A DNA stretch of 64,000 nucleotides from Candidatus Pacearchaeota archaeon (GTDB lineage: Archaea > Nanobdellota > Nanobdellia > UBA10117 > JAFCGA01), in assembly GCA_017608345.1 (NCBI GenBank), contig JAFCGA010000001.1, positions 97,766-161,765 on the forward strand, read 5' to 3'. A model generated the notes under the pieces. That model was not told where the DNA came from and ran no database searches. It worked only from the letters and a program-made list of their open reading frames with translations. Shown in pieces: positions 11,971 through 16,035 of the stretch; the stretch's first letter is position 1, and each line of letters begins with the position of its first letter. A program made the translations under genes and the position numbers.

Positions 11971-12135
11971 CGCCGGGAACGGGATTTACATCGAACAAGT
12001 TCGCTAAAACAAACTACGTTCATTTTGAACCCGTATACCCCGAAGAGTCTAGCTAGCTACTACTTAAATTAGCAGGCTAGTGCCATTTTCTGCTGCCTTC
12101 AAAAGAAAGACAGTACCAGATTAGGCGATCCCGGC
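11971..12135 (-). tRNA. tRNA-Ser(GCU) precursor with at least three introns (D-loop region, canonical 37/38, T-loop)
   Basis: Read on the minus strand. Acceptor stem GCCGGGA/UCCCGGC is perfect and the discriminator is G73. The D-loop has A14 and G18G19. Anticodon stem CUAGC/GCUAG carries the loop CUGCUAA (anticodon GCU). The long variable arm is ACUC-UUCG-GGGU. T-arm ACGGG-UUCAAA[39 nt]AU-CCCGU. Total length is 165 nt against ~86-90 nt mature. Confidence 0.6.
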
Positions 12136-12612: not shown

Positions 12613-12628
12613 AAAAGACTTTTAAATC
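12613..12628 (+). promoter_or_regulatory. TATA box AAAAGACTTTTAAATC upstream of tRNA-Phe
   Basis: It ends 24 nt upstream of the first tRNA base (12652). Confidence 0.45.
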
Positions 12629-12666
12629 ACTCTTTTACTTTAGTTATTATTGGGGTCGTAGCTCAG

Positions 12667-12703
12667 AGTCTTTCTTTCTCCTTGGGCGAGAAAGGCGAGT
12701 AAC
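12667..12703 (+). other. D-loop intron of tRNA-Phe (boundaries +/- 2 nt)
   Basis: The insert AGUCUUUCUUUCUCCUUGGGCGAGAAAGGCGAGUAAC lies between GCUCAG and UCGGGAGAGC. It has an internal hairpin CUUUCUC/GAGAAAG. Confidence 0.6.
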
Positions 12704-12747
12704 TCGGGAGAGCACTAGACTGAAGATCTAGGTGTCATGGGTTCAAA

Positions 12748-12859
12748 CGCTGCCCCTTTCTTTTAGAAAAAGAAAGGTGTAAGGTAGCCCAAAGAAAAGG
12801 CATTTACTACGCGACTTCGTCGCTCCGAATATGCCTTCGGCAACTTTGCAGCTGGAAAA
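12748..12859 (+). repeat. T-loop intron of tRNA-Phe, a member (C1) of the dispersed C-type structured repeat family
   Basis: A 10-bp hairpin CCTTTCTTTT-AGA-AAAAGAAAGG, then CCCAAAGAAAAGG and CGACTTCGTCGCTCCGAAT blocks, align with 38573-38670 and with the reverse complement of 35449-35552. The intron ends GCUGC/GCAGC pair next to the T-stem. Confidence 0.6.
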
Positions 12860-12873
12860 TCCCATCGACCCCA

Positions 12874-13347: not shown

Positions 13348-16035
13348 ATGACTGATTGGCATTCTATTCCGCTAGATAGTTTATTCAAAGAGCTAAATAC
13401 TTCTAAGCATGGATTAACTCAGGAAACAGCGAGATCGAGGCTAGCAAAATATGGAGAAAACAAGCTCAAGCAGGCTAAAAAGATTTCTCCGATTACAATT
13501 TTTATAAATCAGTTCAAGAATTTCTTGGTTCTTTTATTAGTGCTAGCTATAGCGATATCTATTGCGATTGGGCATTTTATTGATGCTGCAGTCATAGGAG
13601 TAATAATTTTAGTAAATGCTATTCTGGGATTTATACAAGAATACAAAGCTGAGCGAGCTATGGAAGCGCTCAAGAAGCTCTCTGCGCCGAAAGCAAAGGT
13701 TACTCGAGATGGAGAGTTTCGTACGATTCCAGCTACACAACTAGTTCCGGGAGATATCATTCTACTCGAGCAAGGAGACAGAATCCCTGCAGATGCTAGG
13801 CTCATAGAAGCCATTAATCTCCGCATTGACGAAGCTTCACTAACCGGAGAGTCGATTCCAATAATGAAGGACATCGCAGTAATCAAAAAGGCTAAACTAG
13901 CTATTGGCGATAAAAAGAATTGCGTGTTTATGAACACAATCGTAACCTACGGTCGGGGAACGGCTATGGTTACGCAAACCGGTATGCAAAGCGAGGTTGG
14001 CCATATTGCTAAGCTCCTTCAGACAACTGAGACACAACCTACTCCGCTGCAAAACAAGCTAAAAGACGTTGCTAAGACGCTAGGTATAGCTATTCTCATA
14101 ATCTGCGGAGCTATGTTTGCAGTAGGACTTCTACGGGGAGTCGATATATTTGAGATGTTCATAACTGCGATAGCGCTAGCTGTAGCCGCTGTTCCCGAAG
14201 GCTTGCCCGCAGTTGTTACTATAACTCTAGCCATTGGGCTAAACCGTATGGCTAAATCAAAAGCGATAGTTCGGCGATTGCCAGTTGTTGAAACTCTTGG
14301 TGCCGCGACAGTTATCTGCTCAGATAAAACCGGAACACTGACTAAAAACGAGATGACTGTTAAGGAGATTTACACAAATAAGAAAACATATACTGTGCTT
14401 GGTTCAGGATATGAGCCAAAAGGAGAAATACTCGACGGCAAGAAAGAGGCAAAAATAGATAAGAATCTAGACATGCTACTCAAAGCTTCGATCTTGTGCA
14501 CAACAGCTAATCTTTATCAAGATAAAGGCTGGAAAATCTCCGGTGATCCGACTGAAGGCGCGCTAGTTGTAGCAGCTGCCAAAGCTAATCTAATAAAAAA
14601 CAAATTAGTGAAAGAGTATAAATCCCTTGCTGAACTGCCATTTGATTCTAAGCGTAAGCGAATGTCGATAGTGTATGCGACGCCGACAAACAAAAAAGTA
14701 GCTTATGTTAAAGGCGCTCCGGAGATAATCTTAGGCAAGTGTGTAAGTATCTTTGAAGATGGAAAAGTTAGGAAACTCAGCGAGCTAGACAAAAAGCGAA
14801 TTTTAACTAAGAATCAGAATATGGCTTCCCGTGCGCTGCGGATTTTAGCTATTGCATATCGAGTAATGCCTAATGTAAAGAAATACTCCATTGAAAATAC
14901 TGAAAAAGATCTTGTTTTTGTTGGTCTTGAGGGAATGATTGACCCGCCGCGGATGGAAGCTAAGAAAGCTATCTCGCTCTGTTCCAAAGCAGGAATTAAG
15001 GTGATAATGATCACTGGAGACCATGAGCTAACCGCGCGGGCGATTGGAAAAGAACTTGGCATTGTTGGAAAAGCCGTAGATGGAGCAGAACTAGACCGAT
15101 TAAAAGCTAAAGGTTTGCTGGGAATTGTCGAAAAAACAGCTATTTTTGCGCGAGTTTCTCCAGAACATAAAGTTATGATCGTCGAAGCGCTGAAGAACAA
15201 AGGTCATATTGTTGCTATGACTGGTGATGGAGTAAATGACGCTCCTGCGCTGAAGAAAGCGGACATAGGAGTAGCCATGGGTATCAAAGGTACTGATGTT
15301 GCTAAAGAAGCTTCAGACATGATCTTAGAAGATGACAATTTTGCAACGATTGTATCGGCTGTCCGCGAAGGGCGAGGAATTTTTGATGATATTCGCAAGT
15401 TTATACTTTATTTATTATCCTGCAATGTTGGCGAGATTATGGCAATCTTTGGGGCTTCCCTTATCGGCTTACCGATTCCGTTACTAGCTGTTCAAATATT
15501 ATGGATGAATTTGCTGACCGATGGTTTGCCAGCTCTTGCTCTCGGTGTTGAGCCGCCAGGAGATCATATCATGGAAAGACCGCCTCGCGATCCGAAAGAA
15601 CACACGATTAACAAGCAAATGTGGACAAATATAGGTCTTGTTGGGACGGTTATGTGTATTGGTGTGTTATCTCTATTCTTCCTAGCAGACCCATCTAAGA
15701 ACTTGCCTTACGCTAGAACAATGGCTTTTTCCTCTATAGTTATGTTCCAATTGTTTAATGTATTTAATACTCGCTCAGATGGCTCGGTATTTAAAACAAA
15801 CTTCTTTAGCAATAAATACTTGTTATTAGCAGTCATTAGCTCGCTTTTGTTGCAGTTCTTTGTAGTCTATGTGCCATTCATGCAGCCGCTATTTGGAACC
15901 GTTGGATTAGCGGCCATGGATTGGGTGAAGATTGTGGGGGTTAGCGCTTCGATTATATTAGTTGTTGAGGTTTGGAAACTCGTCTCTAAATTAAGAAATC
16001 CACAATCCGTGAACACTGCAATACATTCTAGCTGA
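13348..16035 (+). CDS. P-type cation-transporting ATPase (type II, Ca2+/SERCA-PMCA-like)
   Basis: It carries the DKTGTLT phosphorylation site, TGES, MITGDH and MTGDGVNDAPALKKADIGVAMG, with multiple TM segments over 895 aa. Confidence 0.9.
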   Translation: MTDWHSIPLDSLFKELNTSKHGLTQETARSRLAKYGENKLKQAKKISPITIFINQFKNFLVLLLVLAIAISIAIGHFIDAAVIGVIILVNAILGFIQEYKAERAMEALKKLSAPKAKVTRDGEFRTIPATQLVPGDIILLEQGDRIPADARLIEAINLRIDEASLTGESIPIMKDIAVIKKAKLAIGDKKNCVFMNTIVTYGRGTAMVTQTGMQSEVGHIAKLLQTTETQPTPLQNKLKDVAKTLGIAILIICGAMFAVGLLRGVDIFEMFITAIALAVAAVPEGLPAVVTITLAIGLNRMAKSKAIVRRLPVVETLGAATVICSDKTGTLTKNEMTVKEIYTNKKTYTVLGSGYEPKGEILDGKKEAKIDKNLDMLLKASILCTTANLYQDKGWKISGDPTEGALVVAAAKANLIKNKLVKEYKSLAELPFDSKRKRMSIVYATPTNKKVAYVKGAPEIILGKCVSIFEDGKVRKLSELDKKRILTKNQNMASRALRILAIAYRVMPNVKKYSIENTEKDLVFVGLEGMIDPPRMEAKKAISLCSKAGIKVIMITGDHELTARAIGKELGIVGKAVDGAELDRLKAKGLLGIVEKTAIFARVSPEHKVMIVEALKNKGHIVAMTGDGVNDAPALKKADIGVAMGIKGTDVAKEASDMILEDDNFATIVSAVREGRGIFDDIRKFILYLLSCNVGEIMAIFGASLIGLPIPLLAVQILWMNLLTDGLPALALGVEPPGDHIMERPPRDPKEHTINKQMWTNIGLVGTVMCIGVLSLFFLADPSKNLPYARTMAFSSIVMFQLFNVFNTRSDGSVFKTNFFSNKYLLLAVISSLLLQFFVVYVPFMQPLFGTVGLAAMDWVKIVGVSASIILVVEVWKLVSKLRNPQSVNTAIHSS

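Follow-up and report, generated by a model that had tools for sequence, protein, structure and literature searches.

Positions 12652-12873 (+) of the window (the whole stretch of DNA analysed here, 64,000 nucleotides long) raise the question of whether a tRNA gene with inserts in both its D-loop and its T-loop is genuine, and how its transcript would be processed. A sequence-only reading of the stretch had called it tRNA-Phe(GAA), with introns in the D-loop and the T-loop and none at 37/38. That call is upheld by the uniqueness of the gene, its orthology with tRNA-Phe genes of relatives, covariation in its stems, BHB-like junctions at both inserts and the presence of genes for EndA and RtcB. 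We regard the locus as a genuine and essential gene for tRNA-Phe whose two introns, at 15/16 and 59/60, are predicted to be spliced by proteins. Its type, the non-canonical two-intron archaeal tRNA, is already known and rarely catalogued. The assembly that contains it (1.05 Mb, 15 contigs; G+C content, 39%) is estimated to be 88% complete.

Anatomy, uniqueness and orthology of the tRNA-Phe gene

Minus two segments, the locus is a perfect tRNA-Phe(GAA) cloverleaf (ARAGORN on the spliced sequence). Deletion of 12667-12703 and 12748-12859 leaves 73 nt, which ARAGORN calls tRNA-Phe(GAA), and a 74-nt spliced version is called likewise. All pairs of the spliced tRNA are standard (7 in the acceptor stem, 4 in the D-stem, 5 in the anticodon stem and 5 in the T-stem), so that the four perfect stems and the uninterrupted CUGAAGA anticodon loop claimed from the letters were both recovered by ARAGORN on the spliced product.

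Exon 1 (12652-12666, +) supplies the acceptor 5' strand GGGGTCG, U8, A9, the D-stem 5' strand GCTC, A14 and G15. Exon 2 (12703-12747, +) opens with the remainder of the D-loop, CTCGGGA, and carries the D-stem 3' strand, the anticodon arm CTAGA-CTGAAGA-TCTAG, the variable loop GTGTC and the T-stem 5' strand ATGGG, ending at 12747 with T54-A59 (TTCAAA). Exon 3 (12860-12873, +) consists of T60, the T-stem 3' strand CCCAT, the acceptor 3' strand CGACCCC and the discriminator A73. The gene does not encode CCA; the bases after the discriminator are CTAAATTTT, a T-rich tail. Upstream, a candidate TATA-like box, TTTTAAAT (12620-12627, +; read from the sequence), has its centre about 28 nt before tRNA position 1, a spacing that fits an archaeal promoter, and the purine-rich GAAAAGAC just before it is a candidate BRE. 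The stretch upstream of the gene at 12613-12627 reads GAAAAGACTTTTAAAT.

The unspliced gene is missed by both finders used, as the sequence-only reading had said of standard tools with such genes. ARAGORN found no tRNA anywhere in the unspliced 64-kb window, nor did it find this gene in intron mode over the whole genome. Rfam gave no match in the window at the gathering threshold; under permissive settings its tRNA model matched exon 2 alone (16.3 bits against a cut-off of 29), and no Rfam family matched intron 1 or intron 2 at gathering or permissive thresholds. Across the 1.05-Mb assembly, a GAA anticodon arm in a tRNA-like context occurs at this locus only, and exon 2 had no other match in a BLAST search of its own genome (G000).

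Against relatives, exon 2 is 93-98% identical to their tRNA-Phe (BLAST). When the spliced tRNA-Phe was aligned with those of 12 relatives, the cloverleaf was 99.3% paired over the 13 sequences and 11 of the 21 stem pairs showed a compensatory change; none of 500 shuffles matched the observed pairing and covariation, and no slid register came close. The gene is uninterrupted in 11 relatives. Inserts are present in three others: a single one in the T-loop, at the same place, in G001; one in the D-arm and one in the T-loop in G035; and two in G005, both in the anticodon arm. Three relatives (G015, G004 and G028) have a P-type ATPase gene after an intron-less tRNA-Phe gene. The window has its ATPase gene at 13348-16035, separated from the tRNA-Phe gene by a NUDIX gene, and this shared neighbourhood supports orthology. 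The best relatives of the ATPase come from genomes labelled Candidatus Pacearchaeota, Woesearchaeota and Nanoarchaeota, which places the host in the Pace-/Woesearchaeota group of DPANN archaea.

The tRNA-Phe gene is one case among many in this genome. Rfam scores just 12-14 of its tRNA genes above the cut-off, where many relatives have 30-43; the majority of its tRNA genes must therefore be disrupted. With the sole tRNA-Phe gene also among those that finders miss, tRNA counts, completeness estimates and decoding inferences for such DPANN genomes are badly biased.

A second gene of this kind was seen in the window at 11971-12135 (-): a class II tRNA-Ser(GCT)-like gene with the acceptor strands GCCGGGA/TCCCGGC, also missed by ARAGORN and Rfam. 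Of its three inserts, one is in the D-loop, one adjoins the anticodon loop and one, of 39 nt, is at 59/60 in the T-loop. Most of the splice combinations tried were called tRNA-Ser(gct) by ARAGORN, and its junctions are approximate.

Junctions of the two introns

Both junctions form BHB motifs, in relaxed form only. Intron 1 (12667-12702, +; 36 nt) lies at position 15/16. Its helix H pairs the D-stem 5' strand GCTC (12661-12664) with an intronic decoy, GAGT (12697-12700), in 4 of 4 bp. On one side of H, B1 is a clean 3-nt bulge, AG|A (12665-12667), followed by h', the 9-bp stem of a hairpin (12668-12676 with 12688-12696); on the other, B2 is AA|C (12701-12703). AAC is followed by TCGGGA and the outer helix h is absent, so the motif is classed as relaxed HBh', a form published for a D-loop intron (PMC5829648). 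Both the MFE and the centroid fold of the precursor contain the acceptor stem together with H, the 3-nt bulge and h' of intron 1 (z = -3.25).

The cut sites of intron 1 were placed by a rule calibrated on paralogues. Cutting two bases into each bulge comes from the literature on the eukaryotic anticodon-intron pair. Six tRNA genes of this genome have an insert at 15/16, and each shows NN|N after a stretch that pairs perfectly with positions 10-13 over 4 bp. At a class II tRNA gene (C1:10749-10957) the rule yields TGCCCGAG+CGGTCAAAGGGGC, letter-identical to the D-arm of an uninterrupted paralogue at C12:15664. The introns that ARAGORN placed in other tRNAs were in part arbitrarily positioned, and were therefore not used for the calibration. 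Applied to tRNA-Phe, the rule would end exon 1 at G12666 and start exon 2 at C12703, giving a 9-nt D-loop (AGCTCGGGA) and a 74-nt tRNA.

The sequence-only reading had reached 73 nt by the arithmetic 222 - 37 - 112. The product is a valid tRNA, as ARAGORN confirms, and the 37-nt intron 1 behind it is probably one base off; junction geometry, the paralogue-calibrated rule and D-loop length in relatives together favour 36 and 74 nt. The competing placement leaves gene and mechanism as they are and takes 12667-12703 as intron 1, for an 8-nt D-loop (AGTCGGGA). A D-loop of that length does occur in one relative, G005 (AGCTGGGA), and the 3' site, having no outer helix, is less constrained in where it is cut. 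We nevertheless judge this placement unlikely: a cut two bases past the 4-bp helix matches the uninterrupted paralogue exactly and fits all six 15/16 introns, and 10 of the 12 relatives have a 9-nt D-loop, with which the 74-nt product aligns gap-free.

Intron 2 (12748-12859, +; 112 nt) lies at position 59/60, a published site of non-canonical introns (PMC4090602), and forms a relaxed hBH motif. The T-stem is its outer helix h. H consists of 3 bp between T54-C56 (12742-12744) and GAA (12855-12857), next to a mismatch of A57 with G12854, and B2 is the 3-nt bulge AA|T (12858-12860). Beyond the 5' site, h' has 5 bp (12749-12753 with 12848-12852) and an extra unpaired T stands at 12853, so that the 5' cut would fall in an asymmetric internal loop (A58, A59 and C opposite T12853), which makes the motif relaxed on this side. 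Because of runs of A, the T-loop splice site can slide over four positions (56/57 to 59/60) with no change in the product; paralogous introns favour 59/60, where we place it.

Those paralogues are numerous. A strict home-made scan of this genome, which replaced an earlier permissive split-tRNA scan with 2019 hits, identified at least 18 tRNA genes with an insert of 26 to 141 nt after TTCAAA at 59/60. The 3' ends of 18 such inserts share the signature G-N-R-A-A|T, followed by T60 and the T-stem: AA is invariant at -1/-2, as is the G at -5, which pairs with C56; -3 is A or G, pairing with T54; and -4 pairs with T55 in 15 of the 18. The signature corresponds to the h-B-H half of a BHB motif, and the predicted cuts are at A59| and |T60. 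Together with the rule for 15/16 (H followed by NN|N), it gives a calibrated splice rule that may be used to find the remaining tRNA set. Loci with a 59/60 insert include C1:88612-88834, C2:85684-85868, C4:25007-25234 and C7:11208-11545.

A shifted register for intron 2, TTCA/TGGA (4 bp, with a 4-nt bulge and an 8-nt T-loop), was considered and rejected. It is possible in tRNA-Phe only; the 94%-identical tRNA-Ala copy supports only the register given above, and the GAA-AA|T spacing kept in most of the 18 T-loop introns also speaks against it. In the tRNA-Ala copy a T faces A57, making a perfect 4-bp helix, versus the G mismatch in tRNA-Phe.

Splicing enzymes and the repeat families of the introns

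EndA is encoded by one gene (C6:48847-49575; 243 aa) and is a single alpha unit with N-terminal and catalytic domains (PF01974, 97-99 bits; PF02778, 47 bits); in the control, PF01974 matched in archaea only. RtcB is also encoded (PF01139, 531.7 bits). Among all ORFs of at least 70 aa in the 88%-complete assembly, phmmer (--max) found no second EndA-like ORF; an EndA beta subunit, like a second tRNA-Phe gene, could lie in the missing part.

An endonuclease of broadened specificity, as the sequence-only reading had supposed, finds no support in the assembly. The Tyr, His and Lys of its EndA align to the M. jannaschii alpha4 enzyme, over a catalytic domain free of gaps. Against the N. equitans alpha subunit there is a 6-residue gap just before the catalytic His, at the basic loop (residues 90-98, PMC3488258; called L3 in PMC5829648), and at the CSL site the A. 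pernix EndA is 7 residues longer. The published marks of broad specificity are an (alpha-beta)2 or epsilon2 architecture or a loop L1, L2 (ASL) or L3; neither such an architecture nor, at the CSL and N. equitans-loop sites, such a loop was found. EndAs of this kind are reported to cut strict BHB motifs only, and alpha4-type EndAs noted in disrupted DPANN genomes have been linked to L3 (PMC5829648). Judged by its sequence, then, the EndA is of the strict-motif type, yet the genome is full of relaxed motifs.

One feature of the protein may bear on this. Its N-terminal tail comprises 68 residues, 21 of them Lys or Arg. Among 30 relatives, where the extension ranges from 0 to 100 residues, a longer tail goes with fewer Rfam-detectable tRNA genes (Spearman -0.56, p = 0.001, kinship ignored). 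The tails are heterogeneous, from Lys-rich to acidic, and in the most disrupted family they are acidic, not basic. We treat the possible relation between tail length and tRNA disruption as a lead only.

Relaxed motifs in a genome with a plain alpha-type EndA are the sole reason to suppose that the inserts are not EndA substrates at all and are instead kept as expansion segments, or removed by self-splicing or by RNase trimming and trans-ligation. We find this scarcely credible. The inserts interrupt the D-loop and the T-loop, two loops that have to make contact with each other in a tRNA (G18/G19 with positions 55/56); their sizes of 36 and 112 nt and the lack of any Rfam match exclude group I and group II introns; and the junction signatures, a 4-bp helix with bulges, are those expected for EndA.

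The account that we favour, and hold with fair assurance as a whole, is that the locus is the sole functional tRNA-Phe(GAA) gene of this Pace-/Woesearchaeota-like DPANN archaeon, with two BHB-type introns spliced by EndA and RtcB. Its transcript would be a precursor of about 222 nt. At intron 1, GAGT would pair with GCTC in a 4-bp helix, the 5' cut falling in the AG|A bulge beside the 9-bp hairpin and the 3' cut, AA|C, in an unconstrained stretch. At intron 2, T54-C56 would pair with the intronic GAA, with the 3' cut in the AA|T60 bulge closed by the T-stem and the 5' cut after A59, within the asymmetric internal loop. EndA would make the cuts at both introns and RtcB would join the exons. The predicted product is a 74-nt tRNA with the D-loop AGCTCGGGA and the T-loop TTCAAAT, to which CCA would be added afterwards.

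Within this one genome, tRNA genes for different isoacceptors share highly similar introns. The T-loop intron of tRNA-Ala(TGC) (C2:85684-85868, in the rRNA operon region) matches intron 2 at 94% identity over 125 nt, and the T-loop intron of tRNA-Trp(CCA) (C4:25007-25234) matches it at 79%. The similarity to tRNA-Ala ends at the conserved T-arm, so the shared part is the intron. BLAST against its own genome also gave partial copies of intron 2: in tRNA-Pro(TGG), within D-loop introns, in an insert of the 16S rRNA gene and at C1:26432, where the copy lies just past an ORF and no tRNA is near. For intron 1, the 15/16 intron in the D-loop of tRNA-Arg(CCT) (C7:15157-15317) showed about 76% similarity (BLAST). 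By these alignments intron 2 is a copy of a repeat family present in other tRNA genes, and intron 1 is probably one as well. Relatives are intron-less at the syntenic site, tRNA-Phe orthologues without an intron being found among them, and the introns are such copies; both facts point to gain, and copying between genes within this lineage is the most likely source of the tRNA-Phe introns.

In its 5' half, intron 2 contains a module at 12753-12800 (+), whose layout is shared with about 30 loci in the genome. It consists of a pyrimidine tract, CCCCTTTCTTTT (12753-12764), a loop AGA, a complementary purine tract, AAAAGAAAGG (12768-12777), a 13-nt spacer and AAAGAAAAGG (12791-12800), the core of which mirrors the purine strand of the hairpin. 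At the approximately 30 occurrences of the pyrimidine hairpin, a second purine tract follows the first after 4-15 nt and is its mirror image, co-varying with it (AAAAGAAA with AAAGAAAA, AAGAGAAAGAA with AAGAAAGAGAA). The module is present in one orientation only. Its order of tracts is the sequence layout of a putative intramolecular purine-motif triplex. A literature search found no description of the pyrimidine-hairpin/mirror-purine module.

Downstream in intron 2 is a second structured module (12797-12837, +), with a stem AAGGCAT/ATGCCTT, a 7x7 internal loop and a hairpin GCGAC-TTC-GTCGC, in which the tRNA-Ala copy has one compensatory change, C-G to T-A. Over the whole intron, 4 pairs show a compensatory change among 4 alignable copies, too few for a claim of a conserved fold. 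No C/D-box, K-turn feature or ORF was seen by eye in intron 2.

The first module was also observed outside tRNA genes. The 16S rRNA insert (C2:~87044-87092, -) opens with the module of the tRNA-Phe and tRNA-Ala T-loop introns (ACTGCCCCTTTTCTTTAGGAAAGAAAAGGTGTAAGGTAGCCCAAAAGAAA). In the relative G016 (C26, 1495-1740), tandem copies of the module recur every 85 nt, interleaved with repeated CAAGCAACATTATCATACACCTCT and outside any detectable tRNA; the tRNA-Phe gene of G016 is itself intron-less.

Copies of this kind outside tRNA genes (C1:26432; the tandem copies in G016), and a sole EndA that looks narrow in specificity, would suit a decaying pseudogene, that is, a former tRNA-Phe gene inactivated by two dispersed repeats and no longer processed. 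We hold this to be quite improbable. It would leave the assembly with no tRNA-Phe gene, this being the only one, and would have to account for 21 of 21 stem pairs intact in a gene whose exon 2 is still 93-98% identical to relatives. Both inserts sit exactly at sites that form BHB-like junctions, a candidate TATA-like box stands at about -28, and the 59/60 architecture with its conserved 3' signature recurs in 18 tRNA genes, which cannot all be dead.

With the gene taken as functional, enzyme and introns might be joined in a broader scheme, which we offer tentatively and consider less probable than not. A plain single-subunit EndA, free of the published specificity loops, would handle relaxed BHB junctions by the dozen, perhaps helped by its variable charged N-terminal tail or by a partner, and the introns would be copies of a mobile pyrimidine-hairpin/mirror-purine module. 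This module would spread between D-loops, T-loops, rRNA and intergenic DNA, to any place able to form a 4-bp helix with a bulge. The locus joins two questions: how an M. jannaschii-like EndA meets relaxed motifs, and how BHB introns are copied between genes, as in the 94%-identical tRNA-Ala copy.

Comparison with known systems

The Thermoproteales are known for tRNA genes that hold several BHB introns at non-canonical positions (Marck and Grosjean 2003; Sugahara 2008; reviewed in PMC4090602). Introns there also lie outside 37/38, including at 59/60, two or three per gene are possible, their motifs are relaxed (HBh' or hBH) and standard finders miss them, all as in the present genome. The D-loop site used here, 15/16, is not among the positions named in the review text (PMC4090602). 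The host also differs, being a DPANN archaeon of about 1 Mb with a single alpha EndA, whereas the Thermoproteales have an (alpha-beta)2 enzyme with the crenarchaeal loop.

Large-scale transposition of tRNA introns has likewise been described in the Thermoproteales (Fujishima et al. 2010, as reported in PMC4090602 and bioRxiv 10.64898/2026.10.13.758758). Near-identical introns across amino-acid identities are common to both systems, here with 94% identity between Phe and Ala and related copies in Trp and Pro. Unlike there, the shared sequence here contains a distinctive module, a pyrimidine hairpin with a mirror purine tract, copies of which are also present in an insert of the 16S rRNA gene and on their own between genes.

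Closer in cell type, ARMAN-2/Ca. Micrarchaeum is an ultrasmall DPANN archaeon that also has D-loop and T-loop introns with relaxed BHB motifs, but its EndA is a three-unit epsilon2 enzyme with an ASL loop, in contrast to the single alpha unit here (PMC3239211, PMC3488258). The DPANN survey of PMC5829648 offers the same pairing of an alpha4-type EndA with heavily disrupted, partly undetected tRNA sets; the alpha4 enzymes there are linked to L3, whereas the EndA here has a 6-residue gap at that place relative to N. equitans. Asgard archaea, too, have inserts in most of their tRNA genes, many of which escape annotation, and enlarged D-loops are common (bioRxiv 10.64898/2026.10.13.758758). Shared intron families are nearly absent from them according to the same work, whereas the T-loop intron of this tRNA-Phe gene clearly belongs to one.
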